DNA from: an uncultured Ignavibacteria bacterium
GTDB taxonomy: Bacteria > Zixibacteria > MSB-5A5 > SM1-73
Assembly: GCA_964631815.1 (NCBI GenBank)
Contig: CAZWAO010000002.1
Location: 1-43,527 of the forward strand
Length of the DNA: 43,527 nt
Direction of reading: 5' to 3'
Under the pieces are notes generated by a model. It was given only the letters and a program-made list of their open reading frames with translations. It made no database searches and was not told the origin of the DNA. Below are positions 2,600-43,527 of this stretch, in pieces; the stretch's first letter is position 1; each line of letters begins with the position of its first letter. Both the position numbers and the translations under genes were made by a program.

Positions 2600-3535
2600 A
2601 TGAGTCAGGATAAGAAGCGAATAGACTGGTCCGAGAAGTGCTGGAGGGAAATGCTGGTCTACCAGCGCAAGACCTTGTGGCTGGAGGGCACGTTGGACAG
2701 GCTGGCAGCATGGCTGGGTTTGAAACCACGAATGACCGCGGTGGACGTGGGATGTGGATTGGGTTATCTGGGTTATACCTTCTGGCCTTATTTCGGCAAA
2801 GGCGGGCAATACATCGGCATTGACGCGTCGGAGAAACTGGTGAAACAAGCGCAGAAAGCGGCCAAACACTGGGCCAAGAGCGGTCAGGCCTCATTCAGAG
2901 TCGGAGACGCCTACCAGCTTCCGCTGGAGGACGACTTTGCCGACCTAGTCATGTGCCAGGCTTTGCTCATTCACTTGCAGCATCCGGAGAAAGCCCTCAA
3001 GGAGATGATCCGCATAGCTAAACCCGGCGGTCTGATAATGTGCCATGAGCCGGACAGCCTTTCGGTGCTTCTGGAAAACTGGTACCGCTCCCTTCCGGAG
3101 CTTGACATCGACGAACAGCTGCTGATCTCCAAAGTGGCCCTGGTGAGCAACAAAGGGAGGATCAAACTGGGACAAGGCGACGGCAGCTTCGGCAACAAAC
3201 TCCCCATCCTGATGGGCAAACTGGGTCTTGAGGAGATCGACATCCGACAAAGCGACGCCGTTTTCTATGTTCAACCGCCCTATCGCGGACCGCGCCAGAA
3301 AGACCTTTTGGACAACGTTAAGAAGCAGTGGCTGAATAAAGAAAGACGCAGGGCCTGGATGGCTCGCGAAAGGGGGTTCTTCCTGGCCGGCGGCGGCAAC
3401 CCGGATGAGTATCGGCGCTATCGACGAATCCAGGACAGATCCACAAGAGCATTCCAGAGGCAGGTAGAGAGAAAAGAGTATTCCGCTTGCGGCGCAGGCC
3501 ACGTGTACGTTTCCAAGGGACGCAAGCCAAAGTAG
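2600..3535 (+). CDS. class I SAM-dependent methyltransferase (paralogue 2, tandem duplicate)
   Basis: ORF 2576..3535. AAGGAGG at 2588-2594 sits 5 nt before ATG 2600. It has the same VDVGCGLGYLG motif and is colinear with the upstream gene over its full length. Confidence 0.8.
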   Translation: MSQDKKRIDWSEKCWREMLVYQRKTLWLEGTLDRLAAWLGLKPRMTAVDVGCGLGYLGYTFWPYFGKGGQYIGIDASEKLVKQAQKAAKHWAKSGQASFRVGDAYQLPLEDDFADLVMCQALLIHLQHPEKALKEMIRIAKPGGLIMCHEPDSLSVLLENWYRSLPELDIDEQLLISKVALVSNKGRIKLGQGDGSFGNKLPILMGKLGLEEIDIRQSDAVFYVQPPYRGPRQKDLLDNVKKQWLNKERRRAWMARERGFFLAGGGNPDEYRRYRRIQDRSTRAFQRQVERKEYSACGAGHVYVSKGRKPK

Positions 3536-3560
3536 ACACAAAGTCCCGGTTCATTTCATC

Positions 3561-3585
3561 TACACCGTCCCCAGGTGTATTTTTT
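3561..3585 (+). terminator. intrinsic terminator after methyltransferase 2
   Basis: TACACC (3561-3566) pairs with GGTGTA (3574-3579) around a 7-nt loop. A run of six T follows directly (3580-3585). Confidence 0.6.
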
Positions 3586-3587
3586 CC

Positions 3588-3616
3588 TTGATTTTCATAG
3601 CGGCTTCACATATGCT
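3588..3616 (+). promoter_or_regulatory. candidate sigma-70-type promoter for the GYD gene
   Basis: TTGATT at 3588-3593, a 17-nt spacer, then TATGCT at 3611-3616. Confidence 0.3.
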
Positions 3617-3732
3617 TCCATTATCCGGACTGACGACGGGGATCGTCGGTGCCCATATATGGTTTAGAAAACCGAATCTGGGGCGTTCTATCGAGTTCTC
3701 GGCTCGCTGCCGGAGAAAACAGGGAGGTTAGG

Positions 3733-6707: not shown

Positions 6708-9659
6708 TTATTTTAGAAGAAGCATCTTATTGGTCTTGGTGAATTCCCCCGCCTCCATCCTGTAAAAGTATACGCCGCTGGCGACATCCTGGCCCCTTTG
6801 GTTTTTTCCATCCCATATCACCCTTTTATCGCCTGCCGTCTGTATCTCATCCACCAGAACCTTTACCTCCTGCCCCAGTATATTGTAGACCGTCAGTCGC
6901 ACGCTTCCGGCACGAGGAAGCGAATACTCTATTACAGTCTCGGCATTGAACGGATTTGGGAAGTTGTGCCCCAGGCGGAATGAAGTTATCACTCCCTCCT
7001 CTCCCTCTTCCACCGAAGAGGGAATCATTCCCAGGTCGCTCAAGGCCTGGTGTAATAGCTGGGTAGCTTGTGCCTCCTGAATGAAGTATAGCGGGAAATC
7101 GAAGAAGATAACCTGCTGGCCAGTTCCTAAGTAGCGGAAGGCGACGGGTTTGCCTTCGGAAGCTGAGGTATCGTAGGTCGAATGGAAGGTGTAGATAACC
7201 TCTCCGGCCATAAGGCTGTCGATGTAACCAACGCCGGGGACTCTTCCTAATAACTCCAGCCCCGGGGCTGCCTGGGCCACTCGCAGGCTGTCGACCTGAA
7301 GGTCCGGGTAACCGGAAATCCGGCTGTGCGCCCCAATGAACTCCTCCGAGCGCTCGTCGAGAGTGCTCCACGGCGGAACCAAAGCAGATTCGACGTGGAG
7401 CCGGTCATAACGGATATCGCCGGCTGAGAAATGCCTGATGGACCAATCGCCGTCATCTCCCTGGGAGAGATTGCGGCGGCCCTCGATGATAACCTTGCCG
7501 CCATAATCCAGATATTTCTTGAGAACCGAGTAAGTCGAATCCGTATCTGCTCCCAGCGACCGGTTTCCTCTGAAGTCCTCGGAGTGAACGATCACCACGC
7601 TGTAACGGCCGAGCTCAGGAAGGCGCAGCTGAGGATACGGGGGACAACTGGGACAACTGTGGTCCACATAGGCTCGCGTGTATTCCTGTAACGCACGCTC
7701 GTAAAAGGCATTTATGCTGTCGCCGTTCACCATGTTGTTGCCTATGTCTATATAGGTTTCGTCCACCACCAACAGGCCCTGATCCAAGGTAACGGCGAAG
7801 CCCCGGGCTTCGCTCGACATCTGGCTTTCGTTTCCGGTGGTATCCACTGCCGTTAAGGTGTAGTAATAATACTCCACGTCGCCTTGGACGGTCGAATCCA
7901 CAAAAGTCGTGTCGCTCCACTCATCCGCCAGAAGCTGGTAACCGGAGCCGGATTGTTCGCTTCTGAAGATTCTGTAGTGGTCGAAATCGGCTTCGCGGTT
8001 GGCGGCCCAGTCGAGTTTGATCTTGTATGTGCCGTATGGGTCAGCTATCAGTTCCGACGGTGCCCGCGGCGCCACTCTGGGTGCTAAGGAGACCTCCGGA
8101 TTGGCGAAGCTTTCGAATCCGGTCTGGTTGACGGCCGACACGGTGAAGAAGTATGTCGTGTTCTCGGTCAAAGCGGTGAGGGTATCGGTGTTACCGGCCA
8201 GTTGGCGGACGCTGTCGTAGTCTCCGCTGGAGGTGCCGAAGTACAGGTTGTAGTGGTCCACATCCTCCACCGGGTTATTATCTAACCAGTTCAAATACAA
8301 GGCGTCACCATCTCCAGCATCCACGGCAGTCAATCCCTCCACTGCCGAAGGGGAATTCCCCAAGGTCAGCACCGTGGCCAGGCACATCTTTGCGACTTCT
8401 CCCAGGTATGGAAAATTCAGGCTGTCGATCAGGTCATAATTCGTGTGCCAGCCGGCCGTGTGGAACTCGCCTTCCGAAGCCGCGACCACATCATAGCCAA
8501 ATTGGTAAAAAGAATTTTGATCGCTTGCGAAGTTCGGACCATCGTACACCGGGCGGAGGGAGGTGTACGTTTCCGCCGCATCCTTCATTGCTTCCACAAA
8601 TGGCATCTCTCCTGGCGGCGCATACAGCAGGACGTCGGGATCAGAATCCACGCTGTGTCCGATCATGTCGGAGTTGATCATCAGCTCCACGTTTGTTCCC
8701 CGATTATGCAGGTATTCCGCGAAGTGGTCGCTTCCTACAAGTCCTTGTTCTTCCTGAGCAAAGGGCACAAACATGACGGTTATGGGCAGCGGATTCTGAG
8801 AGATTATCCGGGCCAGCTCCAACGCGACCACCGTGCCGCTGGCGTTATCGTCGGCCCCGGGAGCAAAAACCATGGGGTTGACTCCGCTTCCGTTGACCAC
8901 GGAATCGTAATGTCCTCCCACGACCATCACCCTGTCCGGCTGAACCGTCCCTTCCACCGTAGCCACCACGTTCCACTGGTGGGAGACCCAGAAGTAGTGA
9001 TGAAGCCACAGGCTGTCGATGCCGAAGCCGGACATTTTCTGGTACAGCCAGTCTCTCGCCGCAATAATGGAATCGGAGTACGAGTACCTGGTGCGGAAGT
9101 CCTGAAGCCTCTGAATCCAGTCATGCAGCGAGTCCGCGGAAACCAGGTCGACTAAATCTCCAATGTCTTCGGAATAGCGCGGCGCGGCTGGGGGCCAGGT
9201 CATGGTTGGTTTGTATTCAAGCGGTATGGCCCGGCGACCAATCGGAACAACCATGTATCCGACCCTGGCCAGACCGGCAGCTTCTTCCTTCGAGCCTTTG
9301 ACGAATTGTCTGGCCTGGTCTTCGAATAAAACCCTACCGTAAGAAACCGGTGCCGGCTTGGCCAAGGTTTTGGGAGCGGAGATAAGGAAATAGTCTTCAG
9401 ACCAGGGCGACTCATCCACGATCCGGTATTTCAGGCCGGCTTGATCCAGCTCGCTCAACCTGTTCTTCTCGAACTCCGCTAATACGTAGCCTTCAAATCT
9501 GTGGTAGGCAATGACACCCAAGGATCGAGCGGCCAAAAAGTCTTTGGATTCCTTCAAATTGAGTTTGATCAGAACCGGATTAGCAACGGACGACGCAGAC
9601 ACGGAAAGCGAAACGGCAAGCGAAATAAGAAGGGCCAAAAGCGCTCTTCTTTGAATCAT
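6708..9659 (-). CDS. secreted M28-family metallopeptidase with FN3 domains, an unassigned ~250-aa module and a T9SS C-terminal sorting domain
   Basis: GGAGG sits 5 nt before ATG 9659; the track's GTG at 9665 is 2 codons upstream. A signal peptide is present. M28 zinc-ligand blocks are VVGGHYDSV, APGADDNASG, FAQEEQGLVGS and NSDMIGH. At least two FN3 repeats follow. The C-terminal T9SS/FlgD-like tail reads NFPNPFNAETVIEYSLP...GVYFYRMEAG...KMLLLK. Confidence 0.85.
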   Translation of the reverse strand: MIQRRALLALLISLAVSLSVSASSVANPVLIKLNLKESKDFLAARSLGVIAYHRFEGYVLAEFEKNRLSELDQAGLKYRIVDESPWSEDYFLISAPKTLAKPAPVSYGRVLFEDQARQFVKGSKEEAAGLARVGYMVVPIGRRAIPLEYKPTMTWPPAAPRYSEDIGDLVDLVSADSLHDWIQRLQDFRTRYSYSDSIIAARDWLYQKMSGFGIDSLWLHHYFWVSHQWNVVATVEGTVQPDRVMVVGGHYDSVVNGSGVNPMVFAPGADDNASGTVVALELARIISQNPLPITVMFVPFAQEEQGLVGSDHFAEYLHNRGTNVELMINSDMIGHSVDSDPDVLLYAPPGEMPFVEAMKDAAETYTSLRPVYDGPNFASDQNSFYQFGYDVVAASEGEFHTAGWHTNYDLIDSLNFPYLGEVAKMCLATVLTLGNSPSAVEGLTAVDAGDGDALYLNWLDNNPVEDVDHYNLYFGTSSGDYDSVRQLAGNTDTLTALTENTTYFFTVSAVNQTGFESFANPEVSLAPRVAPRAPSELIADPYGTYKIKLDWAANREADFDHYRIFRSEQSGSGYQLLADEWSDTTFVDSTVQGDVEYYYYTLTAVDTTGNESQMSSEARGFAVTLDQGLLVVDETYIDIGNNMVNGDSINAFYERALQEYTRAYVDHSCPSCPPYPQLRLPELGRYSVVIVHSEDFRGNRSLGADTDSTYSVLKKYLDYGGKVIIEGRRNLSQGDDGDWSIRHFSAGDIRYDRLHVESALVPPWSTLDERSEEFIGAHSRISGYPDLQVDSLRVAQAAPGLELLGRVPGVGYIDSLMAGEVIYTFHSTYDTSASEGKPVAFRYLGTGQQVIFFDFPLYFIQEAQATQLLHQALSDLGMIPSSVEEGEEGVITSFRLGHNFPNPFNAETVIEYSLPRAGSVRLTVYNILGQEVKVLVDEIQTAGDKRVIWDGKNQRGQDVASGVYFYRMEAGEFTKTNKMLLLK

Positions 9660-9800
9660 GGTCACCTCCAGGTTATACCCTGGCTTTCAACCCTATTTCC
9701 CACCTTAAGCTACGCATAAGCGACGGGGAAAATCGAATCAATCGCAGACCGAACCCATACAGCTTGCCGTGTCTGTGCCCGCAGATGGGTGAAAAAACGA

Positions 9801-9902: not shown

Positions 9903-12900
9903 ATGATTGGCGGTCGTTATCGGATTCTGCAAGAGATCGGTTCCGGCGGAATCGGGAGAGTATTCAAAGCCGTAGACCAGTGGGGGGACAGGACGGTTGC
10001 GCTGAAAACCCTCTCCCTCACCGGGCCGGATCACACCGAGAGATTCAAAAAGGAGTTTCTCCTCCTTCGAGGGCTGCATCATCCTCATATCGTGCCGGTG
10101 TATGATTTCGGCTGGGCTGATGAAGGCCAGCCTTGCTTCAGCATGGAGTTCATAGAGGGGCAGGAATGGGGCACGCTCCTTCAATCGCTTGATTACTCCA
10201 GATTGTGGCCGGTCATCATAGACATCTGCGGCACCCTCGACTTTCTGCACTGCAAGGGAATCATCCACGGGGATATCAAGCCGTCCAACATCCTGGTATC
10301 CTCCGATCCCCAGGGCCAATTGATTCCCACCTTTACCGATTTCGGCTTTGCCGAGCCGGGCAAGCCGGAGGACTCCACTTGGTGGAAGGGCACCCCCTCC
10401 TACCTGGCGCCGGAGATCATTCGGGGTGAAAGATACACTCATCAAGCGGACCTTTACTCCCTGGGCGTTTTGCTGTATGAGAGTATCTTCGGGAAACCAC
10501 CGTTTCAGGAGCAGGAGTTGGGCCGGCTGGCCAGGAGCCACCTGGAAAAAGAGGTGACGATTCCTGCTGAGCCGGCAATTCCTCAAGGACTGGAAGACCT
10601 CATCCTGAAGCTGCTGGAAAAGGACCCCATGGATCGCTGCTATTCAGCATCCGAGGTGCGGGCCAGGCTGGAAGAGATATCGGGGATGAGGCACCCCGAC
10701 TATGACCGTTCGCTTGCCGAAAATTTGATCTCCTCGGCCGACTTTGTGGGCAGGGAAAAAGAGCTGTCCCTGTTGAACCAAGCCTTCCGTCAAGCCCAAG
10801 AGAATGGGAACCCGGTGGTGCTGATCTCCGGTGAGCCGGGAATGGGCAAGACCGGGCTGCTGAAGGAGTTTGTGAGCCGGATCGAATTGGAGCAGGGCCT
10901 GGTCCTTAATCTGCGCCTGTCAGAGAGGAAATCTCTCGAGACACATCGCCGGGAGATAACCCGCTTGCTTGAATATAAAACCCTTACCAAGGTTCTGATT
11001 GTGGAAAACTTGGAGCAAGCGGCCGACTCGCCGGAGGAATTTCTCGGCAGTCTGCTCGGTCAGCCGGAACTCCACAGGTTGCTGCTCTGTCTCACCGTCA
11101 ACAACAGCCTCTCCCGCTCGGACAAAGACGCCAGAGCGACGCAAACCGAAGAGGCACTCAAATCGCTGCTGGGGGACAGACTCGTCCATTTAGAACTGGA
11201 GAGATTAACCGAGCTTGAGGAGAAAGATCTGGTCTGCTCCATGTTCGCCTGGGAGCAGAAACAAGCGAAAATAGTATCCGCAGTTTACCAGAAGGCGCAA
11301 GGGCATCCGATGCTGGTGCGGCAGACACTCCGGCAATTGGCTGAGAGCGGACATTTTGGCAGACGGGAAGATGGCTGCTGGATGCTCGATCCAAAGCAGG
11401 TGGAGCAAGCACAAGCACCGCCAGCTTTGGCCCAGGATATGACTGATCGACTGAGTCGTCTTGGTCCGGATGAGTTGCATCTCCTGGGTTTGGCCTCTGT
11501 ATTGGGCCTGCGATTTCGCTCCCAGACGCTAAGCGATTTGCTGGGAGGAACGTCGGAGGGCTTCCGAAAGCAGTTCCAGGGCATTCTGGCCGAAGGAATT
11601 CTGTTGCCCGGCCCGGATGGCTCCTCAGAGGACGGTTTTTGCTTCAATAGCGGCTTTGTCCGGGATCTCATCTTGTCACAGATGGAGGACCAGGAGGTCA
11701 GGGAGCTTCACTCTATGGTAGCCGGCTACCTGGAAGAAAAACAGTCGGCGGGAGTGGAGGACCATCTGGAGGAGTTAGCCGAGCATTACTACCTGGCCGG
11801 CAGCGCAGAGCCGGCTTTACGATATTCTCTTTTGGCCGCCCGTCGTGCCCGAGACTCGGGCCAAGCCGGACAGGCTGTGATCCATTATCTGCGGGTCCTG
11901 GAACTCTGGGATGAATCGCCTGCGCCTCCGGAGGGGACCAAAAACGAGATTCTGCGCGATTTGGCAAGTCAGTACGAGTGCGACGGGCGTTATCAGGAGA
12001 GCATAGAATATTACCAGAAAAGCCTGGATCTGGCAGCTAACGAAAGTCCGCAGAACACGGACGTCCTGCGGATTCAACAGAAAATCGCCGGTATCTACAG
12101 CAAGATGGGGCAGCATGACAGAGCCACCAAGTTGCTCGATCGAACGCTGCCGCTGGCTGATCCCAAGTTGTTGCCGGTGGAGCATGCATCCCTGCTCATC
12201 GACCTGGCCCGGGAGAGAAGGGTAACCTCAGAATACGACCAGGCCGCGGGATACCTGCAGGAGGCCATCGGGCTGCTCCAGGGATTGGGACCTTCCAAGG
12301 AGATGGGCATCGGCTTGAACTCGCTGGCGGGAGTTTGGTGGGCACTGGGCGATTATGACCGGGCATTGGATAACCTCTCGCGGAGTCTGGACGTATTCGG
12401 CAAACTGGGAGAGACCCGGGAGATGGTCGACTGCTACATCGCCAGAGCGCTCCTTTTGAGGAGCAAGGGACTTCCCGGGGAAGCCCTGCAAGATTCGGAA
12501 GAAGCCGGAGAGCTTTTGAGGAAGCTTTCCGACCCCTATCGAACCTCGGTACTGGAACACAACCTGGGCATAATCTTGACGGACCTCAACCGGTGGGATG
12601 AAGCTCTGGACTGTTTCAAGAGAAACCTTCAGCTGAAGACGCAGTTGCGCGACGTGAAGGGAGTGGCCCTAAGCCATAACAGCATGGGGCACGTCTATCT
12701 CAGAAAGGGCCGGTTTGCGGCAAGCGGCGATCAGTTGTTTTCCGCTCTGAAGATGTTCCAGGAGGCTCGCGACAGAAGCGGCGCTGCCCTGGTGTATTAC
12801 AACCTGGCCGATCTTTTCCGGTGCAAGGAAAACTATCAGATGGCTCGCCACTATCTGGACAGGAGCATGAGGATCGCCCGGCAGATCGGAGAGGAAAGCA

Positions 12901-14927
12901 GGACCGCAGACTGTCTCTTGCTGTCCGGAAAACTACATCTGGATCAGAGCGACTGGCCGAAGGCCGACCAGAGTCTATCTCAAGCAGCCCGTATCCTGAA
13001 AAACGGCAGGAACCTTCCGGCAGAGGCGGAGCTGGCTTTGGCTCAAGCCGAGTTGTGCGTTGGAACCGAAGATCTCCCCGGGGCCGAACAACACCTAAAG
13101 CAAGTTGGGCAGTTTGCGGAGTCCTCCGGCAGCGCCTGGCTGGAAGCGCTCCTATGCCGGGTGTGGGCCGAACTTTACAGGCTCAGCGGCGACGAAAGCG
13201 CCTGCCTGGATCGACTGCTGCACAGCCTGGCCACTTTCAAATCACTGGGAGCCAGGTACGAGCTGGGCAAAACTTATCTGAAGCTGGGCCGGCTCAAGCT
13301 GAAGATGAGGAGGGTGAAAGAGGGGCAGGCTTGCCTGAGGGAGGCGCTGAGCATTCTGGACAAACTGGAAGTGGAGAACAGCAGAAAGGAGGCGAAAGCT
13401 TTGCTTGACCAGACAAAGGAAATGCCCCATTTGGAGAAAGAGAGGATTCTCACCTTCTATCGACTGGCGGATTTGCTGAACAACGTCTGGGATACCGACG
13501 AGCTGCTGAACAAGGCCCTGGACTTGGTCATCGAGCTGTTGGACGCCGAGAGGGGAGCCATAATCCTGTACTCCGAAAAGGACAAGAGCTTCCGGGTTAA
13601 AGTCTCACGGAAACTGGAGCTGGAGACCTCCAAAGACGCCGTGGCCATATCCCGACGGGTGGTGAATGACGTCATCGAAAGCGATTCCCCCCTGATCGTG
13701 GACAATGCCACCAGCAACCCACAGTTCGCCGCCAGCAAGAGCGTAATCGCCTACAACATACTTTCCATATTGTGCGTTCCGCTGCGGACCCAAAATCGGC
13801 TCATCGGCACGGTTTACTTAGATCATCGCAGCCTGCCGGCGGTGTTCTCCTCGGAGGATATCGATTTTCTGAAGGCCTTTGCCAGTCTGATCGCCACGGC
13901 CATAGAAAAAAGCGAGCTGTATGCCAAGGTCCACGAAGAGGTATTCCAGCTCAAAGAGACCTTTCACCGGTACTATGAGTATCCTCATCTGGTGGGAAGG
14001 AGCGCAAAGCTGCAGGAGGTCTTCGGTCTGGTGGAAAAGGTGGCCCCTGCCAAAACCAGCGTCTTGATTCTGGGCGAGCCGGGCACCGGAAAGGAGCTTA
14101 TCGCTCACCTCCTACACGAGAGAAGTCCCAGAAGAGCCGGCCCATTCATACGGGTGAACTGCGCCGCCCTGGCGGAAAGCATGTTGGAGGGCGAGCTGTT
14201 CGGCGTAGAGGATAAGGCGGCCACCGGCGTGGGCTTCAGAAAAGGAAAATTCGAGTTGGCCGACGGAGGCACCATTTTCTTAGACGAAGTCGGAGACATG
14301 AGCCTGTCACTGCAGGCCAAGGTGCTCCGGGTTTTGCAGGAGAAAGAGTTCGAGAGGGTGGGGGGACAGCAATCCATAAAGGTGGATATCCGGATAATCT
14401 CGGCCACCAACCAGGATCTGCAAAAGAAGGTGCAGGATGGCGACTTCAGGTTGGATCTCTTCTATCGCCTGAATACCATTGTGATCACCATTCCTCCACT
14501 CCGCGAGAGAAGGGAGGATATACCCCTGTTGGTACAGCACTTCGTACAGAGGTCTGCTCAGGAGAACAACAAACCAGAGGTGAAGTTGACCAAGAGAATC
14601 ATGGCGGCCTTGCAGGCTCATAGATGGAGTGAGAGCAACGTCAGGGAGCTGAAAAATCTCATTGAAAGGGCTACGTTGCTAAGCGAGAATGGAGAATTTC
14701 CTTCGGACCTGCTCAGTAGCTTAAGCGTGATACGGGAGTCGGCTGATATGGACGGGCCGGGCAAACTCCAAAGCCTGCTGGATTGGGTCGAAAAGCACAG
14801 AATAGTCCAAGCCCTGCAGAGAAACGGGTGGAACCAGGTAAAGGCTGCCGAGGAATTGGGCTTGAATGAGACCACCCTGAGAAGGCGAATGAAGAAACAC
14901 AAAATCAAGAAACCTCTTCGATTGTAG
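9903..14927 (+). CDS. 1674-aa multidomain regulator: Hanks Ser/Thr kinase - STAND/AAA P-loop NTPase - TPR array - GAF - sigma-54 interaction AAA+ domain - Fis-type HTH
   Basis: Kinase motifs: GSGGIGRVF, VALKTL, HGDIKPSNIL (non-RD), TDFGFA, YLAPE. The STAND Walker A is GEPGMGKTG (nt 10830-10856), preceded by FVGREKEL. A long TPR-like helical repeat region follows, then a GAF domain (AERGAIILYS...LCVPL...LIGTVYLDHR). The sigma-54 activator domain has GEPGTGKE (14073-14096), GGTIFLDEVGDM, VDIRIISATN, FRLDLFYRLN, PPLRERREDIP and NVRELKN. The C-terminal HTH_8 reads NQVKAAEELGLNETTLRRRMKKH. Confidence 0.9.
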   Translation: MIGGRYRILQEIGSGGIGRVFKAVDQWGDRTVALKTLSLTGPDHTERFKKEFLLLRGLHHPHIVPVYDFGWADEGQPCFSMEFIEGQEWGTLLQSLDYSRLWPVIIDICGTLDFLHCKGIIHGDIKPSNILVSSDPQGQLIPTFTDFGFAEPGKPEDSTWWKGTPSYLAPEIIRGERYTHQADLYSLGVLLYESIFGKPPFQEQELGRLARSHLEKEVTIPAEPAIPQGLEDLILKLLEKDPMDRCYSASEVRARLEEISGMRHPDYDRSLAENLISSADFVGREKELSLLNQAFRQAQENGNPVVLISGEPGMGKTGLLKEFVSRIELEQGLVLNLRLSERKSLETHRREITRLLEYKTLTKVLIVENLEQAADSPEEFLGSLLGQPELHRLLLCLTVNNSLSRSDKDARATQTEEALKSLLGDRLVHLELERLTELEEKDLVCSMFAWEQKQAKIVSAVYQKAQGHPMLVRQTLRQLAESGHFGRREDGCWMLDPKQVEQAQAPPALAQDMTDRLSRLGPDELHLLGLASVLGLRFRSQTLSDLLGGTSEGFRKQFQGILAEGILLPGPDGSSEDGFCFNSGFVRDLILSQMEDQEVRELHSMVAGYLEEKQSAGVEDHLEELAEHYYLAGSAEPALRYSLLAARRARDSGQAGQAVIHYLRVLELWDESPAPPEGTKNEILRDLASQYECDGRYQESIEYYQKSLDLAANESPQNTDVLRIQQKIAGIYSKMGQHDRATKLLDRTLPLADPKLLPVEHASLLIDLARERRVTSEYDQAAGYLQEAIGLLQGLGPSKEMGIGLNSLAGVWWALGDYDRALDNLSRSLDVFGKLGETREMVDCYIARALLLRSKGLPGEALQDSEEAGELLRKLSDPYRTSVLEHNLGIILTDLNRWDEALDCFKRNLQLKTQLRDVKGVALSHNSMGHVYLRKGRFAASGDQLFSALKMFQEARDRSGAALVYYNLADLFRCKENYQMARHYLDRSMRIARQIGEESRTADCLLLSGKLHLDQSDWPKADQSLSQAARILKNGRNLPAEAELALAQAELCVGTEDLPGAEQHLKQVGQFAESSGSAWLEALLCRVWAELYRLSGDESACLDRLLHSLATFKSLGARYELGKTYLKLGRLKLKMRRVKEGQACLREALSILDKLEVENSRKEAKALLDQTKEMPHLEKERILTFYRLADLLNNVWDTDELLNKALDLVIELLDAERGAIILYSEKDKSFRVKVSRKLELETSKDAVAISRRVVNDVIESDSPLIVDNATSNPQFAASKSVIAYNILSILCVPLRTQNRLIGTVYLDHRSLPAVFSSEDIDFLKAFASLIATAIEKSELYAKVHEEVFQLKETFHRYYEYPHLVGRSAKLQEVFGLVEKVAPAKTSVLILGEPGTGKELIAHLLHERSPRRAGPFIRVNCAALAESMLEGELFGVEDKAATGVGFRKGKFELADGGTIFLDEVGDMSLSLQAKVLRVLQEKEFERVGGQQSIKVDIRIISATNQDLQKKVQDGDFRLDLFYRLNTIVITIPPLRERREDIPLLVQHFVQRSAQENNKPEVKLTKRIMAALQAHRWSESNVRELKNLIERATLLSENGEFPSDLLSSLSVIRESADMDGPGKLQSLLDWVEKHRIVQALQRNGWNQVKAAEELGLNETTLRRRMKKHKIKKPLRL

Positions 14928-14943
14928 TCGTCATAACTGACGA
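14928..14943. promoter_or_regulatory. enhancer-like site 1: perfect inverted repeat TCGTCA-TAAC-TGACGA
   Basis: It begins on the base after the TAG stop of the kinase-EBP gene. The arms are 6 bp with a 4-nt spacer. Confidence 0.5.
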
Positions 14944-15013
14944 GCTATACCTTTAATATATTGATTATAAATAATTTAGCGACACAAACAAACAAAGGGG
15001 CGACAAAAGAGAA

Positions 15014-15029
15014 TCGGCATAACTGACGA
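15014..15029. promoter_or_regulatory. enhancer-like site 2: TCGGCATAACTGACGA (15/16 identical to site 1)
   Basis: Read directly from the sequence. The centre lies 86 bp from the centre of site 1. Confidence 0.5.
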
Positions 15030-15079
15030 TGGAGTTAACTCTATAATTCTACGTGAGTTATAAGTTGCAATGTCAGATC

Positions 15080-15095
15080 TCGTCAGTTTTGATCC
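15080..15095. promoter_or_regulatory. enhancer-like site 3 (inverted orientation, 12/16 match; TCGTCAGTT = reverse complement of AACTGACGA)
   Basis: Read directly from the sequence. The centre lies about 100 nt upstream of the -24/-12 element. Confidence 0.4.
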
Positions 15096-15182
15096 CCTCT
15101 TCTTTGCCTTCCTTCCCATCAGTACACTTTACCGCAAAGCTAAGCGTTTGTAAACCATAGCGTAACGCGGCCTACTGCGTTC

Positions 15183-15199
15183 CGGCATTGGGTTTGCAA
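15183..15199 (+). promoter_or_regulatory. sigma-54 (-24/-12) promoter CGGCATTGGGTTTGCAA
   Basis: GG at 15184-15185 and GC at 15196-15197 are separated by exactly 10 nt. The sequence matches the consensus TGGCACG-N4-TTGCW at GGCA and TTGCA. It lies about 50 nt upstream of the small ORF start. Confidence 0.55.
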
Positions 15200-15246
15200 T
15201 ACTGTGCAGTCGCAGAGAAAGCAAACCCCTAAACGCGGAGGTCGTG

Positions 15247-15465
15247 ATGCTTTCCAAATTCAATTCACACAGTGTCTCCATTTTGACCATAGCAGTTCTT
15301 CTGCTGTTGGTCGTCGGCTTCTCAGCCAGTGTAGTCTTGGCGGACGGCCAAGGTGGCCAGTGGCCCCTCGAACCCCCACCTGCGACCACCGGTGGCGATG
15401 ACGGAGGAAGCGAGGGAATCCAGACGCTGGTGACGGTCATGACACTGATGGAACTGATTCTTTAG
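15247..15465 (+). CDS. small secreted/membrane-anchored peptide (72 aa) of unknown function
   Basis: GGAGG at 15237-15241 sits 5 nt before ATG 15247. The N-terminal signal-like segment is ILTIAVLLLLVVGFSASVVLA-DG. The mature part is Gly/Pro/Asp-rich and ends in a hydrophobic tail (IQTLVTVMTLMELIL). Its stop abuts the next gene. Confidence 0.55.
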   Translation: MLSKFNSHSVSILTIAVLLLLVVGFSASVVLADGQGGQWPLEPPPATTGGDDGGSEGIQTLVTVMTLMELIL

Positions 15466-15483
15466 TTGCAGCTGAGGGAACGT

Positions 15484-16233
15484 ATGCCACGCATAGTTAG
15501 CGAGACCAAGGAGACTTACGGGGAGCTCAGCAAGGCGGTTCAATCTCCCTTCAATCTGATTCTGGAGGGGGAAAGCGAGGTGGGAAAGGAACACTTCGCT
15601 CGCCTGATCCATCAGGAGAGAAACTGGGGGGGGCGTTTCGTGGTGTACGACTGCGAGCAGACGGGGCAAGAGCAGTCAGACATAGCTGGAAGGCTAACCT
15701 CGGAGGCCTTCCTGCAGAGGCTCAAGCAATCCCACAAGAAGGACACCTTCTTTGTGAGGAGGATCGATCTGCTTAAAGGAATCCTGCATGCACAACTCTC
15801 TGATTTCTTTGAGCAGCTGGCCGAGAGCGGGCGATTCAGCAGAAAAGAACTCCTTAGCCTGGGCATCATCGGATCGGTTCAGCCCGAGAGGAACAGGTTT
15901 TCCTTGGAGAGCGTCCAGTTGAACAGACTGCTGGACATTCTCTTCTGTCTGAGGATTAGAATCCTGCCTCTCAGGGAGCGGAAGGCGGAGATCCCCAGGT
16001 TGGTGGAGCGGTTCGTCCGTTTATTCAATCGCGAACATAAAAAAGAAGTGGAGGGGGTTTCAGCGGAGGCGCTGCAGATCCTGATCCGACACGATTGGCC
16101 CAATAACGTGTGCCAGTTGAGGACCGAGATCGAACGCGCCATAACCTTAACCCAAGATCATCATGCAATAACGCCGGATGCTCTGTCGGACGACTTAGTC
16201 GGATCCGCATCCAGAACGCGTTCGCTTGACTGA
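15484..16233 (+). CDS. stand-alone, degenerate sigma-54-activator-type AAA+ domain protein (no receiver, no GAFTGA, no HTH)
   Basis: GAGG at 15474-15477 precedes ATG 15484; an alternative TTG lies at 15466. EBP blocks that are retained: GESEVGKE, ARLIHQ, RILPLRERKAEIPRLVERFV and HDWPNNVCQLRTEIERA. Walker B hhhhDE is replaced by FFVRR, and the GAFTGA region is absent. Confidence 0.75.
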   Translation: MPRIVSETKETYGELSKAVQSPFNLILEGESEVGKEHFARLIHQERNWGGRFVVYDCEQTGQEQSDIAGRLTSEAFLQRLKQSHKKDTFFVRRIDLLKGILHAQLSDFFEQLAESGRFSRKELLSLGIIGSVQPERNRFSLESVQLNRLLDILFCLRIRILPLRERKAEIPRLVERFVRLFNREHKKEVEGVSAEALQILIRHDWPNNVCQLRTEIERAITLTQDHHAITPDALSDDLVGSASRTRSLD

Positions 16234-16235
16234 AA

Positions 16236-16850
16236 ATGGCAAAGCAAAACCGGTTGTCTTTCATCGTGGGCCTTCTCGAGCGCAACGGAACCATGACCGC
16301 GTCCGATCTGGCCGATAAATGCGGAGTCTCCAAAACCACCATCCAGAGTGACATCCGGGTCCTTTCGGATGCCCGGCTGGCGGTGCGTGCCGATGGAGGT
16401 TACAAACTGCACCATAAGGAGACCCGGCTCGGTCTGCATCTGACGGCGGAAGAGATGTTGAGTCTGTATCTGGGGCTCAACTCCCATCCGGTTCAGTCCA
16501 TCTCTTGTTTCCGCGAGGCAGCCAAACGCGCGCTCTCCAAAATCGAAGCGCACGTGTCGGAAGATGTCAACGGCGACTACGAGGTAGCCAAAAGACACCT
16601 GGCGATTCAGCCGGGGAAAAACCGTCCGCATGAAGGCGCCGCTCTCATATTCGAGCTCATGCGGCAAGCCATCTGGCCCAGGCAAAAGGTGGAACTGCAC
16701 TACGTTTCACCGTCCGGCTCCGAGCGCGCAAAGCTCGTGCCTCAGGGTTTGATCTATAAAAAGGACGGTTGGCATTTGGTGGGGTTGGTGCGCAAAAGCA
16801 AGAGATACTTTCGGCTGGACTTTATCAAAAGCGTGAGCCTCTGCAAGTAA
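16236..16850 (+). CDS. HTH (DeoR/HTH_11-type) - WYL domain transcriptional regulator
   Basis: The ATG lies 2 nt after the preceding TGA. The N-terminal wHTH is GTMTASDLADKCGVSKTTIQSDIRVL. The C-terminal WYL signature is KVELHYVSPSG...LIYKKDGWHLVGL...RYFRLDFIKSV. At 204 aa it has no C-terminal extension domain. Confidence 0.8.
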   Translation: MAKQNRLSFIVGLLERNGTMTASDLADKCGVSKTTIQSDIRVLSDARLAVRADGGYKLHHKETRLGLHLTAEEMLSLYLGLNSHPVQSISCFREAAKRALSKIEAHVSEDVNGDYEVAKRHLAIQPGKNRPHEGAALIFELMRQAIWPRQKVELHYVSPSGSERAKLVPQGLIYKKDGWHLVGLVRKSKRYFRLDFIKSVSLCK

Positions 16851-17323: not shown

Positions 17324-18259
17324 CTAAAAGCGGAACGTCAAAGAAATGGCGTGGGAGTCGCCCAGGTCATCCACCGGAATAAAGCAGTAGTCCAGACAAT
17401 AGGTATGGGTTTTGGCGAAGATCAGGCCCATCCCCCAGCTCAGTTTCGAGTTGGAGTTGAACTCGGAACCGCCGCTATATCCCATTCGAATGGCGATCAT
17501 ATTTCCATAAACGAATTCGGCGCCGGCGCGCAGGCTGTTTCCGTTGTCGGATGAAGCATAGAAATCAGCAACGGCGTTTATAGCGCCCCGGCCCAGAGTA
17601 TCATTCAAAGCCAGGCCCAACTTGATCACGCTGGGCAGCTCGAAAGATTCCGAGATGAACTTGACGTCATGTCCCAGGTTTTGCACGGCCCCGCCCAGGC
17701 GTAGCTTGCTCCAGGGCGTTTTGTACAACCAGCCCAGGTCAAAAGCCACAGTGTGGGCCGTGTAATCCTCGATGGTCTCGCTAAGATATTTGATGCTCGC
17801 CCCCAGAAAAAGGTTGGGGCCCGCTTTAGCACCTAGACCCAGAGCAAGGTTTATGTCACTGCAACCAAACTCCGAGGTGGGTTCCCCCAGTTGGTCTCTT
17901 CCCTCCAGCCGATCCATGTGCAGGTAGTTTAAGTCTCCTGCCAGAACCCCGACTCCCGGTAAAGGTCGTGCGAAGGCTGCGGATTCATAGGAGACATCTG
18001 ATAGCAGGGATTGATGCATGAAGGTCAGCTCCCAACCCTGGATGCCAGCCAGTCCTGCCGGATTCCAATGGATGGCCGTCACGTCGTCCGCCAAACCGGA
18101 AAAAGCCCCTCCCAGAGCCAGAGCACGGGCGCCCAAGCCCAGTTTGAGAACCTGAGCAGCGGAGGTGCCCACGTCGTCGCTGGAAGCCCAACATCCGGCA
18201 ACATGAAAACCACTCAGCAGTAGGAGCACTACAATTGCAATAAGACCCGTGTTCTTCAT
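17324..18259 (-). CDS. PorV/PorQ-family outer-membrane beta-barrel (T9SS-associated)
   Basis: A signal peptide is present. The family-typical N-terminal block is GTSAAQVLKLGLGARALALGGAFSGLADDVTAIHWNPAGLA. The alternating beta-strand pattern ends in an aromatic residue (LTFRF). The gene starts 13 nt after the stop of the S8 protease gene. Confidence 0.75.
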   Translation of the reverse strand: MKNTGLIAIVVLLLLSGFHVAGCWASSDDVGTSAAQVLKLGLGARALALGGAFSGLADDVTAIHWNPAGLAGIQGWELTFMHQSLLSDVSYESAAFARPLPGVGVLAGDLNYLHMDRLEGRDQLGEPTSEFGCSDINLALGLGAKAGPNLFLGASIKYLSETIEDYTAHTVAFDLGWLYKTPWSKLRLGGAVQNLGHDVKFISESFELPSVIKLGLALNDTLGRGAINAVADFYASSDNGNSLRAGAEFVYGNMIAIRMGYSGGSEFNSNSKLSWGMGLIFAKTHTYCLDYCFIPVDDLGDSHAISLTFRF

Positions 18260-18272
18260 TTTCCAGACCGTT

Positions 18273-21200
18273 TTATCGGATTACAGCCAGCTTCGAAATC
18301 TTCTCCTGCCCCTGGTCGTTGCTGACTCTGTATATATAAACCCCGCTGGCCAACTTCCGGCCCTGAGCATTAGTGACGTCCCAAGACACCTGCCCGTCTC
18401 CATCAGTCTCCTGAATGGTGCAAACCTTCTCACCGACCAAGGTGAACACCTCTATCTGAGCCTGAGCGGTGAGCCCGTCAAAGGTCACATGGGTATGACC
18501 CAGGTGCGGTTTGAACGGATTGGGATATACCGACGCGCTGGCCAAACCATCTGCGGCAAACCCCGATCGGCCCGGTCGATTGGCGAACCCGACCAGTTCA
18601 TCCAAAGCCGTGTGGAGAATCCGAGCGGCGGTTTCCTCCTCCACAAAATAAAGAGGAAAACCGAAGTAGATCACTCCGCAGTCTTTGGTGAAATATCTGA
18701 GCGCAACGGCTTTCCCATCGGAAGCGGACGTATCGTAAGCCGAATTGAAGGTGTAGATTACCTCGGAGCGATCCACAGGCGTAAAATAACCCACGCCGGG
18801 GAGCTTACCTCCCGGCCCGACGAAGAGGGGATCAAAGGCATGATTCACCCTCAGCGTGTCCAGCTTCACGATTTGAGGATAGTCCGGGGTCTGGGCCGCG
18901 CCGTTGGCTCCCACAAACTCCGGTTGGGTGGTGTTCCCACCCCAATATGCGGGCATCCAGGCCGAATCGATGTGGAGATCGTCTCGTCTGAAGTCACCGG
19001 CCTCAAAGACCGCAAACTCCTCGGAACAGCGGGATTCGCAGGATGACAGGATTCTCCTCCCCTCGATCAACAGGGCGCCGCCCGCAGCCAGATACTGCTG
19101 GAGAACGGGGTACCATTTCGAAAATCCCGTTGCCTCGTCCTCGTAATGAACCACCGTCACCCGGTGACGACTTAAGTCGAGAAGGCGGAGCGGCGATTCG
19201 TCGCCCCTTTCGATGGTATCATAAGAGTAGTTCTCCAAGGCCCGCCGGTAAAAGGCATTCACGCTGTCACCGTTAACCCCGTCGGCGGACTCAGACCCCC
19301 GGGTTAAATCCACCAGCAGTATCCCCGGTTCCAAGTACATCAAGCAGGCTTCCTTCTCGCTGGAAGGATAGCTTTCCAGCCCCAGCATATCCACGGCTGT
19401 CACGCTGTAAACATAGTCTCGGCCGGCGACCACCCGCGAATCGACGTACACCGTATCCCGCCAAAGCGACTCCAGCACACGCGACTGTTGGTCGGGCTCC
19501 CGGCGGAGGATCTTGTATCCCTTTATGTCCGTATCCCGTGAGGACATGTGCAAGGTAATACTGCTCGACCCGATGCTCACCGCCAGGCAGGGACTATGCG
19601 GCATTCCCACCAGAGCCGTGTCCTCAAGGGGTTGGCAATCCGATTCGGAACAGATGTATCGTTCAGATTCCAGTCCACAGACGTTTACGCTGGTCACCGT
19701 GTAGTAGTAGGTGAGGCCCTGCTGCACGTCTAAGTCGGTGTAGCTGGCCCAGCCTGTGCTGTCGTATTGGACCAGGTTGCCGTTGATCGGGTTCCGGCCC
19801 AGGTAGCTGCCCGATACCGGAGTCCGGTAAACGTTGGATCCGGCTATCTCCGTCCCCCAAAACTGGGCCTGCCATTTGAGGGTCACGCTGGTATCTGTAA
19901 CTTCCGTTACATCCAGCAGAGTGGGCATGGAGGGAGAATCTATGTACATGATCACCTTCTGCCCCAGAGAGCTCTCCAGACCGATCGTATCCACTGCCGT
20001 TATGGCGTATGAGTAAGGGGTCAGGACGGAGAAATTGGTATCCACATAGACTGTGTCCGGGGCTTGTACCGAATCTATTATTCCGTAGTCGGTCCAGCGA
20101 CCGGACAGATACTTGCACCGGTAGACATTGTACTTGGCCAGGTCACCTTCTGTATTGGGGGGCCAACTCAGGACGATGCGACATTCGTCACCCAACTCCG
20201 CGACCAGGCCGTCCACTCGTTCCGGCCGTCCCGGTACAAACGACCTCTCGTTTCCCGGGGTCATCCCGCTCTCCGACACGCCGCATTCTCCCTCTCGGAC
20301 GCAGGTGGCGTTGAAAAAGTAGGTTTGCCCTTCCATCAGGTCCGCAAAAACGAGAGTGTACTGCTGGGGAAAGGCATCCGGCAGCGGGGTGGAATTGATT
20401 GGGGGTTGCTGATAAACGCCCGAAGTGGTGCTGCGATATACGTTGTAGCCATGAGCCTCCTCGCTGTAGCACTTGAAGATCAGACTGGTATCGGTGTGGG
20501 CGATGATCTTAAACTCGGAGGGTGGTTCCGGCGGGTACAATGGGCCGGTTACCCGGACCGGTCCCGTCGGCAGGTGAGGAGGCGGTATGCCCTCCAGGCC
20601 CAGTGAATCCAGGGCGGTAACCCAAAAGTAATGCTCCAGCGAATCGTCCACGGCCGGATCGACCCACATGGTATCGTGTTCCACCCAGGTCACCAACGGT
20701 ATGCTACCGCTGTGCCCGGTCCCGTCATAGATGTTGTAGCGGACCACGTCGCTCTCACTGCTGGGATTCCAGTGAACCACAACATGACAGTCCCTGATTT
20801 CGCCGCCTATGCTGACCACCGGCTGCGGCCGGCCGGCCAGAAAATCCGCTCTGTTCGATGGGGAGGTGCCGTTGCCTCCCGTACCCTGGGTGACCACGTA
20901 GTAATAGGTGACGCCCTCTATCAAACCCGAATCCTGATAGCTGAGGTCCCGCCCTACCGGGTCCTCCAGGGGCTGGGCGTTTAAGGGTGGATCGGGGTAC
21001 ACGCCGGGAATGGTGGAACGAAACACCCAGCAACCCCGGTTTCCCTGAGCCACTCTCCAGCTCAGGGTCGGTTTTGTCCCTAACCACTCCGACACCTTAA
21101 GGCTGTAAGGCGGTGAGCCGAATGCCACGATTTCCGCCTGGGCCGCTTCAGAGGGAGGACTCTCCAATCCGGAGGAGTCAACCGCGCTGACTTGGTAGAG

Positions 21201-24200
21201 ACAAGTTCCGACCTCCTTGATTGACGAATCCACGAAGGTCGTCTCCGAGGCCGACGAACCCAACAGGCGGTATTCTCCGTAGCCGGGAGGATTATAGTAT
21301 ATCAAGTAATGGTCCACCTTCTGCTCGGCCGGGCTGGCAGGCCAAGTCAGGGTTACCTGGACCCCTTCTATGGTTGTCGACGGTCGGGCCGGTGCTGTCG
21401 GCCCGCCCGGTGTGATGCTTATCTCCGGCGACCGGCTGCTCTCCACTAACTGGTTGTCAACGCTGGTGATGGTGTAATAGTACCTCTGTCCCGGCATGAG
21501 GCTCTCATCCAGCCACTGGCTGTCCGGCTGGGGAATGGGATAGGGGTTTACCCTCTCTCCGGCTTGCCCCGAAAGAATAGACCGGTAGATGTTGTATCCT
21601 GCGGCCACCGAAGGCGCCCTGGGCGACCAACCCAGCGTAACGCTGGAATCGCTCCAGGCAATGACGTGGAAATCGGCCGGAGGGTAGTTGTGAGTCTCCG
21701 TGGCCGGGGGCTCGAAGCCCCAACGGCCGCTGTTCCAGCCGTCGTGCATGTACTTGGGCCAGGGTTCGGAGTCTGGATGGTAGTCGATGTCCAACTCCCA
21801 GGAGATCAATTTGGATTGGACATAAATGTTGTAGTCGGTGGGCAGAACCAGATCGATTTTTCCGTCCTTATCCAGATCATCGACCAGCGGCGTATAGGGG
21901 CTGTAAGTATACAGAGTAGGCTCGGCCGTGGCATACAGGGGGAAACCGGGCAAAAGCATGCCTTCGTGATCCCAGGCGTAGATTCCTTCGTAGCCGCTGC
22001 CCAGGAATTGCCCCGTCCGGACCATTATGTCGGCGCTTGCGTCTCCATCCACGTCCGCCAATACGGGACTGCCGAAAGTCTCTCCTCCGGTTGCGAACGC
22101 GTTCCCGTCCCCAGCTAATCCCCGGGCAGTTAACTCTTCCTTTTCCATGCCGCGACAACGGAATACAATCTCTCCTATGCTGCTGCCCAAGCCGGATGCC
22201 GCCTCCCTGATCCTCTTCGAGTCGGGAGTTTTATGAGAAACCAAAGTGCCACTCGGAACCAAGGGGGTCCCGTCCGCATGCCAGGCGTAAACGCGAGCTT
22301 CTCCCAGCGTCCACAGGCTGACCGCTATTTCCAGAGTTCCGTCACCATCCAAATCTCCCACCGCGGGGTGGTTCCCGAACCACCAGCCGGAGATCAGATC
22401 CGGTAATAGTATGGGGTAACCGGCGGCCTGAGTGCCATCCTTCTTAAAGGCACAGAGGGCGTGGTGGTTTCCGTTGGCGCCCAGCACCAAAACTTCCAGA
22501 TCCGGGCTTTCATCCACGTCGGCCACTGCGATCCCGAAAATGTAAACGAACTGAAAAGGATAGTCTCCCGGGCCCAACAATTGGTTTACGTCGTTATCCC
22601 AGATATAGATACCTCCCACCCCCTGGTAGTTGCCGTATTCTCCCGAAACCGCATGAGCCGCTCCGGCGATGATCTCGTTTTGGCCATCCTGGTCCAAGTC
22701 GGCCACGGTCAGACAAGGAAAGGCCATGTCCTCGGCGCTGCCCGCGGTCGAGACCAGCGCGCCCTGGGAGCCGGTAACGATCGGGAGCCCGTCGTTCCTC
22801 CAGCCATAAACCTGACCATTGCTGCTGATGGTGAGCACCTCCGGAACCCCATCCCCCTCCAGGTCGGCGACCACGGGCGTAGCCAGGCCCCAGAATTCGT
22901 TTCCCGCGGTGGCGGCGGGGGCAAACCAGTCGGATGAGGATGAGCAATAGGCGTGCACGCCCTGATCGGAGCAGATGATGATGTCCTGGATCCCGTCCCC
23001 GTCCAAATCTCCCAGGGCGGGTGAGGACATCATGTTTCTGTCCGTATCCTTGGGCCACCCCGACTCGCGCCGGCCGTTAGGACCGAAGACCTCAACTCCC
23101 CCCACCCTTCCGGTTGAGGGCGGGCCTCCCACTCCGATTACGATCTCATCGTATCCGTCACCGTCTATGTCCCCCACGGCCGGCGACAACGAGCCGTTGG
23201 AAGAGAGCTCCTGTGTCCAACCACCGGTGGCGATGCTCTTCACCGCTACTGCTACCGTGTCCGCGTATATCTGACCACCGGCAGTCTCCACCCATAGACG
23301 CAGGGCGTATTCCGTCACATCCAGAAAACTCACCAGCCACCGGCCCAAAACCCCGTCCGCCACCATCCGAGAGGACGAGTTTATCTCAATCCAGGTATGG
23401 GGCGATTGTCCGTATCCGTATTCCAGCTTGTAACCGGCGAAGTCCGGCGCTATAGTGTAGCCTGTGATCTCGGCAAATCCGGCTATGGTGTCCCCCGCCG
23501 CAGGAGAAGTTATCTTTACGTAATTCCGGTCGTTGGCGATCACGCGCACCACGGCTTGGTTTTGTTCTCCCACGGTCAATCTCAGAGTGAAAAGACCTGA
23601 CAGGCCGGAGCTGTTCCACAAGCCTAAGGTATCGCTCTTCACCGGAATGGTCGAGCTGGCGATGGTGGTCCAACTCTGGGGCCGGGGACCCTCTCCATAT
23701 TCCAGCAGATAGCCCGAGAACCCGGGTCCGTCTGCCGTCCCTATCACGGCCACCTCTCCGGAGACCTGACCGTTTTCTGTGGGATAGTCTATCTTCGCCA
23801 TCCTGCCGGAGACCAGCTGCAAAGCGGAAGCCAAATTCACTCTCCCGTAACCGCTGTAGACATCCTTCCCCGGAGAGTACAGGCTGTCGCCTCCGTAAGG
23901 ATAGATCAAGTCGTCTGCCGATTGTTCTATGATCTCCACTGTCTTAGCTGCAGTCATTCCCGGCGATACGGCCAACAGGTAAGCCGCTACTCCCACCACA
24001 CACGGTGCAGCCATGCTGGTTCCGTCTGCCAGGTAGTACTTCTCATTCACTATGTGAACCCCCGGGAATCCGTTCTCGGCGTACATGTCCGTGCCTGCAG
24101 CTCTCAAGGACAGGATATCCTCTCCCGGGGCCACAATCTCCACGTGATCGCCGTAACTGGAAAAAGGCGTGACCCGGTCCCTGCTGTTGGAGGCCCCTAC

Positions 24201-42010: not shown

Positions 42011-43527
<1,517 letters not shown>

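Follow-up and report, generated by a model that had tools for sequence, protein, structure and literature searches.

The region of about 320 bp between the gene of a 1674-aa regulator and a small downstream operon, in contig CAZWAO010000002.1 of an uncultured bacterium of the Zixibacteria (assembly GCA_964631815.1), is probably an enhancer-dependent promoter on which the regulator acts via sigma-54. The whole stretch analysed comprises positions 1 to 43,527 of the forward strand of that contig and is referred to here as the window. Three palindromic sites of 16 bp, with the common form TCGTCA-N4-TGACGA, were found upstream of a -24/-12 element. Comparison with related loci showed strong purifying selection at the DNA level on the three sites and the promoter elements, on the distances between them and on the order of the genes. 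Regulatory modules of this kind are known and the cis-element itself is ordinary, but the lineage is undescribed and the regulator atypical. The phylum has, to our knowledge, no cultured members, and the literature searched held no paper pairing "Zixibacteria" with "sigma-54" and none on the domain architecture of this regulator.

Palindromic sites and promoter

The elements of the region are as follows (distances are from the predicted transcription start, and A1 is an alignment of eight spacers):

14928-14943, no strand: Site 1 (S1), TCGTCATAACTGACGA, a perfect palindrome TCGTCA-TAAC-TGACGA, centre at about -273
14954-14979: AT-rich DNA separating S1 from S2; TAAT (14954-57) is conserved in it, and a TAAATAAGTT-like element follows at 14966-79
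15014-15029: Site 2 (S2), TCGGCATAACTGACGA, TCGGCA-TAAC-TGACGA, identical to S1 at 15 of 16 positions, centre at about -187
15071-15076: TGTCAG, a putative additional half-site that precedes the CGTCAG of S3 by 10 bp and is partly conserved in A1
15080-15095: Site 3 (S3), TCGTCAGTTTTGATCC, TCGTCA-GTTT-TGATCC, centre at about -121
15141-15165: partly conserved block TAA-N4-TTGT.A.AC...TAAC (invariant A1 columns), about -68 to -44, between S3 and the promoter
15184-15200, + strand: sigma-54-type promoter GGCA-TTGGGT-TTGCAAT (GGCATTGGGTTTGCAAT), with GG at 15184-85 (-25/-24) and GC at 15196-97 (-13/-12)
15235-15241, + strand: ribosome-binding site GCGGAGG, invariant in A1

Within a site, one helical turn (10 bp) separates the centres of the two half-sites. 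S1 begins at the next base after the TAG stop codon (14925-14927) of the open reading frame (ORF) 9903-14927, which encodes the regulator. The G at position 4 of S2 is a conserved asymmetry, the mismatch being kept in 7 of the 8 aligned sequences. S3 carries the 9-mer AACTGACGA on the minus strand and matches S1 at 12 of 16 positions once inverted; it is turned relative to S1 and S2, with the A-rich strand of the spacer flipped, and S2 and S3 point towards one another with their strong halves. Column identity in A1 is 1.00 for the left half of S3 and 0.81 for its right half.

The centres of S1 and S2 are 86 bp apart and those of S2 and S3 66 bp. Reading of positions 14700-15500 bore out an earlier, first-pass annotation of this DNA, which had located the sites and the promoter element and had described the perfect palindrome of S1, the 15/16 match of S2, the 9-mer and 12/16 match of S3, and both spacings. 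It had also called the sites phased, and this did not hold: distances of 86, 66 and 152 bp correspond to 8.2, 6.3 and 14.5 helical turns, so that the sites do not lie on one helical face, and the arrangement is one of fixed spacing rather than helical phasing. Counting from the promoter, the site centres are 96.5, 162.5 and 248.5 bp upstream of the GG. The dyads are thus placed as upstream activating sequences (UASs) are, more than about 80 bp from the promoter and adjoining the gene of an enhancer-binding protein (EBP).

The promoter element CGGCATTGGGTTTGCAA (15183-15199) has its GG and GC exactly N10 apart, and CGGCAT-TGGGT-TTGCA (15183-15198) differs at two positions from the 16-nt consensus TGGCAC-N5-TTGCW, close enough to be assigned to the sigma-54 type. 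Transcription would start near 15209, giving a leader of 38 nt. No sigma-70-like promoter was found on the + strand of the region.

An integration host factor (IHF) site had been proposed at 14954-14966. The match to the E. coli consensus is perfect in the window, but its WATCAA core is not conserved in the orthologues, where only TAAT (14954-57) is kept; this site was therefore set aside and retained only as an AT-rich region. In 5 of 8 loci the block at 15141-15165 agrees, at 15141-50, with YAANNNNTTG, which is how the E. coli IHF core reads on the opposite strand. The block is a candidate site for a DNA-bending protein, at the position expected of a bending site; such sites are frequent, though not required, between UASs and their promoters.

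All three copies of the 9-mer AACTGACGA in the 43.5 kb lie here, with 0.31 copies expected, and none of 100 shuffles reached three. When the window was scanned with the S1 16-mer at up to three mismatches, only S1 and S2 were matched, and there was no site upstream of the regulator gene. At 11/12 or better, 43 matches were counted over 226 kb of the window and the related loci, and 42 of them fall in this spacer. The loose sigma-54 pattern alone is not significant (29 matches in the window versus 18 expected); the core GGCA-N6-TTGCA occurs twice in the window versus 0.43 expected, and once per orthologous locus, always at this position.

Two matches outside the region were recorded. TCGTCATCCTTGAGGA at 37032-37047 matches the site consensus at 11/12, lies inside an ORF and is the sole outlier in the 226 kb, a count that chance predicts; apart from it, neither the window nor some 180 kb of flanking DNA has a further site at 11/12 or better. 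The second exact GGCA-N6-TTGCA (42647-42661, minus strand) lies inside ORF 42550-42987, has no palindromes upstream and is probably due to chance.

Conservation in related loci

Eight loci were fetched by exact-protein look-up, and scanning metagenomes with aligned sequences of the 249-aa protein from the downstream operon gave 17 more. Eight aligned spacers make up A1; the hexamer census and the site counts refer to 15 non-redundant loci, which cover 100% to about 40% identity of the activator. Full-length relatives of the regulator range from 87% down to about 35% identity, and the orthologues at 87-40% carry the source name Zixibacteria. Exact-protein look-up with the regulator of the window itself gave no match, and the species-representative genomes yielded domain-level matches only, with no close orthologues.

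The gene order, namely regulator, spacer of about 310 bp, small ORF, 249-aa AAA+ protein and WYL protein, is kept at 87-54% regulator identity, and the same order was found in a distant clade in which the 249-aa protein is 36-38% identical. Absence of the motif from orthologous loci, which the first-pass annotation had put forward as a refutation, was looked for, and S1 was present in all 15. In the nine loci of the clade of the window the S1-S2 distance is 84-86 bp, the S2-S3 distance 66 bp, and the distance from the centre of S3 to the GG 96.5-98.5 bp.

In A1 the only conserved runs are five of the six half-sites, TAAT (14954-57), GGCA (15184-87), TTTGCAAT (15193-15200), AACCC (15224-28) and the ribosome-binding site. 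Mean identity is 0.93 in the half-site columns and 0.60 in the rest of the spacer, and random triples of 16-bp windows matched 0.93 once in 10,000. An unbiased census of hexamers in the 15 spacers ranked TCGTCA/TGACGA first, present in all 15 with 50 copies; TAAGTT, which belongs to the TAAATAAGTT-like element at 14966-79, was present in 13 of the 15. At the promoter, column identity among the eight aligned loci is 1.00 for GGCA and TTGCAAT and 0.60 for the 6-nt spacer between them. Invariant -24 and -12 elements around a drifting spacer are the hallmark pattern of two separated elements recognised by sigma-54.

The distant clade (loci L041-L048) has a perfect S1, TCGTCAAAA(A/G)TGACGA; its second site follows after 142-144 bp, and a further 126 bp or so downstream comes GG-N10-G(C/A). 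S1 runs across the stop codon of the regulator gene in two frames, TCG TCA TAA (SS*) in one clade and T CGT CAA AAA TGA (RQK*) in another. Such stop-overlapping sites were found in L028, L030, L031 and L041-L048; the closest relatives of the window have an earlier TAG stop before S1. Since S1 overlaps the stop in different frames, the constraint is on the DNA and not on the protein.

Protein-binding sites and the probable binder

Palindromes directly after a stop codon could also be RNA hairpins in a read-through transcript, as a terminator or a processing site of the regulator mRNA, and S1 could form a 6-bp stem with a 4-nt loop at just such a position. However, there were 0 compensatory changes in 18 pairs over the 8 sequences of A1, and the covariation score was not above that of shuffles. 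The mismatch of S2 persists in 7 of these 8, S3 is only half-palindromic, and there is no U-tract, no terminator call on the + strand and no Rfam match. We consider a hairpin function extremely improbable. The RNA-structure reading was rejected for lack of compensatory pairs, of a + strand terminator and of an Rfam family; in the absence of compensatory changes, the palindromes are taken as protein-binding sites.

Pfam bore out the claim that an EBP with a helix-turn-helix (HTH) is encoded immediately upstream, finding PF00158 (216 bits) and a C-terminal HTH of Fis type in the regulator:

9903-14927, + strand: gene of the 1674-aa regulator, with the Pfam domains Ser/Thr kinase, AAA_16 STAND NTPase, TPR, GAF, Sigma54_activat, AAA lid and HTH_8
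14214-14231, + strand: L1 loop K-A-A-T-G-V, residues about 1438-1443, in the position of GAFTGA
14787-14900, + strand: HTH_8 DNA-binding domain, residues 1629-1666 (PF02954, E = 1.4e-14), Fis-type, C-terminal

The recognition helix is LNETTLRRRM, without change, in the 8 loci; its counterpart in the distant clade is SEATLRRKM. This HTH of the regulator is the likely binder of the sites, because its HTH_8 helix is as invariant as the half-site across the clades that keep TCGTCA, and because the sites are set back upstream from the -24 element by 96 bp or more, an enhancer-like distance.

The other HTH protein of the locus is the HTH-WYL regulator encoded in the operon (16236-16850), and the palindromes might be its operators in an autoregulatory loop, with the 1674-aa regulator acting from solution or from other DNA. 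Dimers are the usual form of WYL-HTH regulators, which typically recognise inverted repeats close to the operons that encode them (BrxR, CapW, PafBC), and every locus of sufficient length has the WYL gene as well as the sites, the distant clade included. An attempt to exclude this protein through absence of its gene from the distant clade therefore failed, the gene being present there. WYL repressors, however, usually act over the promoter, and here the sites are 96-250 bp upstream of -24 and do not overlap it. Moreover, the WYL recognition helix varies between clades (SKTTIQSD, SESTIQKD, SERTIYRD) while the half-site stays TCGTCA; from SERTIYRD to SKTTIQSD three positions expected to contact bases are changed. 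The repeats thus neither sit at the promoter nor co-vary with the WYL HTH, as operators of this protein would. In addition, the position of S1 is linked to the 3′ end of the regulator gene, and the number of sites, three, matches the three dimers of an AAA+ hexamer. We therefore regard the WYL protein as quite unlikely to be what the palindromes serve.

Proposed activation via sigma-54 and the L1 loop

With the regulator as binder, a mechanism can be proposed from these features. Three dimers of the regulator would bind S1-S3 (near -273, -187 and -121) through the C-terminal Fis-type HTH, and would bring together the six AAA+ subunits of an active ring. A signal received via the GAF domain, the kinase-STAND-TPR module or both would release the AAA+ domains for ring assembly. 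The AT-rich DNA and the block at about -60 would let the DNA bend, allowing the ring to reach the closed complex of RNA polymerase and sigma-54 at GGCA-N6-TTGCAAT. ATP hydrolysis would then open the promoter, with transcription starting near 15209 and running into the operon of exported peptide, AAA+ paralogue and HTH-WYL protein. The degenerate AAA+ paralogue and the WYL regulator may, speculatively, feed back on the system.

The ATPase motifs are intact: Walker A GEPGTGKE, Walker B FLDEVG, sensor SATN and the R residues of the arginine finger are all invariant. The L1 loop is different. In HMMER alignments to the structures of NifA, ZraR and FlrA, KAATGV stands opposite GAFTGA, and E[DE]K[ATVI]ATGV is found in every member of the clade down to 35% identity. 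Since proteins of the same architecture in other phyla keep GAFTGA or mild variants of it, KAATGV is a derived, clade-wide feature. The first-pass annotation had described the locus as textbook EBP geometry; the UAS and -24/-12 anatomy agrees with this description, but "textbook" was an overstatement with respect to the loop. As GAFTGA itself is lacking, we file the regulator as working like a sigma-54 activator and not as a proven one.

Several observations weigh against the proposed mechanism. In the loop context E-D-K-A-A-T-G-V an alanine takes the place of the GAFTGA phenylalanine, and two flanking residues also differ. In the literature GAFTGA is described as making the contact with sigma-54 and as defining for activation, most of its mutants being said to fail to activate, and one survey uses the motif as an invariant filter for true activators (PMC7175178, PMC12316311). 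Several proteins resembling bacterial enhancer-binding proteins (bEBPs) but without GAFTGA, such as VpsR (PMC6158489) and Caulobacter NtrC, act on sigma-70 promoters. Sites that nucleate one hexamer are not usually as far apart as 86 and 66 bp, distances that are also not whole helical turns, and the -12 element reads TTGA, not TTGC, in four loci of the distant clade. The rpoN gene is not within the 43.5-kb window. Finally, the sequencing runs searched included no RNA-seq run with the locus; those that matched were DNA, from salt-marsh metagenomes.

The regulator could accordingly bind the palindromes but, having lost the contact phenylalanine of L1, not activate via sigma-54, and instead be a repressor, an anti-activator, an architectural protein or a sigma-70-type activator; a different activator would then work on the -24/-12 element, or sigma-54 would not use it. 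Models for such non-sigma-54 action are VpsR, TyrR and NtrC proteins without GAFTGA. This explanation draws on the presence of KAATGV in every clade member while other phyla keep GAFTGA, and on the bEBP homologues in the literature that lack GAFTGA and work with sigma-70. PexR is a bEBP precedent for both repressor and activator functions (PMC12754779). It is hard, however, to explain without sigma-54 why the -24 GGCA and the -12 TTGCAAT are invariant at an exact N10 while the spacer drifts, and the + strand of the region offers no sigma-70-like promoter. The variant loop is itself under strong purifying selection with its T-G kept, which argues for a functional contact loop, and all the ATPase motifs are intact. 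A precedent on the other side is DVUA0100 of D. vulgaris, whose L1 reads GVATGV and which sits with predicted sigma-54 promoters. On balance we regard a role other than sigma-54 activation as unlikely for this regulator.

Selection on the loop, together with the perfectly conserved -24/-12 element, favours a functional non-canonical contact over a dead loop. We infer that sigma-54 is probably the sigma factor used here and that the KAATGV loop may still be able to engage it. The wider proposal, that a clade of giant kinase-STAND-GAF EBPs activates sigma-54 via a phenylalanine-less loop (E-[DE]-K-x-A-T-G-V), perhaps with the degenerate AAA+ paralogue as a feedback ring subunit, is put forward tentatively, our confidence in it falling a little short of even.

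A non-canonical L1 beside a conserved -24/-12 element raises the question of whether sigma-54 activation truly needs the phenylalanine of GAFTGA. If activation without it is true, this UAS-promoter pair would be natural evidence against a universal GAFTGA rule, and surveys of regulons that filter on GAFTGA would miss a class of activators. If another protein activates, or if sigma-54 compensates for the loop, the locus is a routine example of a known mechanism. The locus also links a eukaryote-like Ser/Thr kinase and a STAND sensor directly to enhancer-dependent transcription, and a defined 16-bp operator, a promoter and a regulator are available for testing.

Target operon and flanking genes

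The operon downstream of the promoter is preceded by a strong ribosome-binding site and comprises three genes:

15247-15465, + strand: first gene; its 72-aa product has a signal peptide and a hydrophobic C-terminus, and ADG-GGQWP is invariant in it
15484-16233, + strand: degenerate bEBP AAA+ paralogue of 249 aa, a full-length AAA+ copy with Walker A kept
16236-16850, + strand: HTH-WYL regulator of 204 aa, the rival candidate binder of the palindromes

Relatives of the 72-aa protein are 68-73 aa long, with a Pro/Gly/Asp-rich linker and a C-terminus ending in LIL (alignment A4); no family match to it was found in Pfam or NCBIfam. The 249-aa paralogue has lost the acidic pair of Walker B and the L1 loop and is without an HTH; it might serve as an anti-activator, or in the ring as a subunit without catalytic activity. 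One distant locus (L041, 4562-5317) has two copies of this gene. In one sub-clade, in the three contigs L046, L047 and L048 (match near 3001-3706 or 1085-1790), the gene appears to be split by a frameshift at about residue 135-142, which could mark a pseudogene or an assembly error; it is intact in L045, which is near-identical to the frameshifted loci.

The locus lies in a type IX secretion context, flanked by genes at 6708-9665, 17324-18259 and 18273-25340, all on the minus strand; part of this arrangement recurs in orthologous loci. The products of the flanking genes are an M28 peptidase and an S8 protease of 2355 aa, each with a Por_Secre_tail sorting domain, and an outer-membrane protein of the PorV/PorQ family. 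A second Ser/Thr kinase, with an N-terminal CHASE2 sensor domain, is encoded at 33214-35712 on the minus strand. DNA of the locus occurs in salt-marsh metagenomes.

Comparison with known systems

The regulator can be compared with known proteins in its parts. Its N-terminal two-thirds (Pkinase, AAA_16 and MalT-like TPR) resemble PknK-/MalT-like regulators. Those proteins end in a LuxR-type DNA-binding domain or in none, and are without the sigma-54 AAA+ module. The AAA+ core is closest to those of NifA and AtoC (50-56% identity).

For the binding sites the nearest likeness is with FleQ, the HTH_8 activator of Pseudomonas, which recognises GTCA-N6-TGAC (PMC6120874). FleQ boxes (GTCaNTAAAtTGAC), like the sites here, have GTCA/TGAC half-sites around an A-rich spacer, but their spacer is 6 nt long, whereas it is 4 nt here and the half-site is extended to TCGTCA. 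FleQ also has a canonical contact loop and a different sensory domain. That FleQ reads GTCA/TGAC nevertheless places the half-site within the repertoire of the HTH_8 fold.

For the loop, the closest counterpart is DVUA0100, a single-component bEBP with L1 GVATGV that was computationally predicted to activate sigma-54 type III secretion operons (PMC4641369). Its L1 is of the same type, x-x-A-T-G-V, with phenylalanine changed to alanine, and it lies near predicted sigma-54 promoters and conserved upstream sites; the regulon is computational only. Its N-terminal region, target genes and phylum are unrelated to those of the regulator described here. The plasmid carrying it, pDV1, was absent among the best 30 plasmid matches listed for the AAA+ core of the regulator. 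The comparison hints that the L1 variant arose here independently of DVUA0100.

In overall design the locus can be set beside NorR-norVW and PexR-katB/ahpC, NorR and PexR being GAF-type bEBPs with three dyad UASs (PMC12754779). As here, a protein with GAF, AAA+ and Fis-type HTH domains is encoded beside its target, and three dyads, one per dimer of the hexamer, lie upstream of a -24/-12 promoter. The sites of NorR and PexR are closely packed, whereas those of the present locus are 86 and 66 bp apart and have a different half-site sequence. The present regulator differs further from both in its additional kinase-STAND-TPR module of about 1200 aa, and in having KAATGV in place of GAFTGA.

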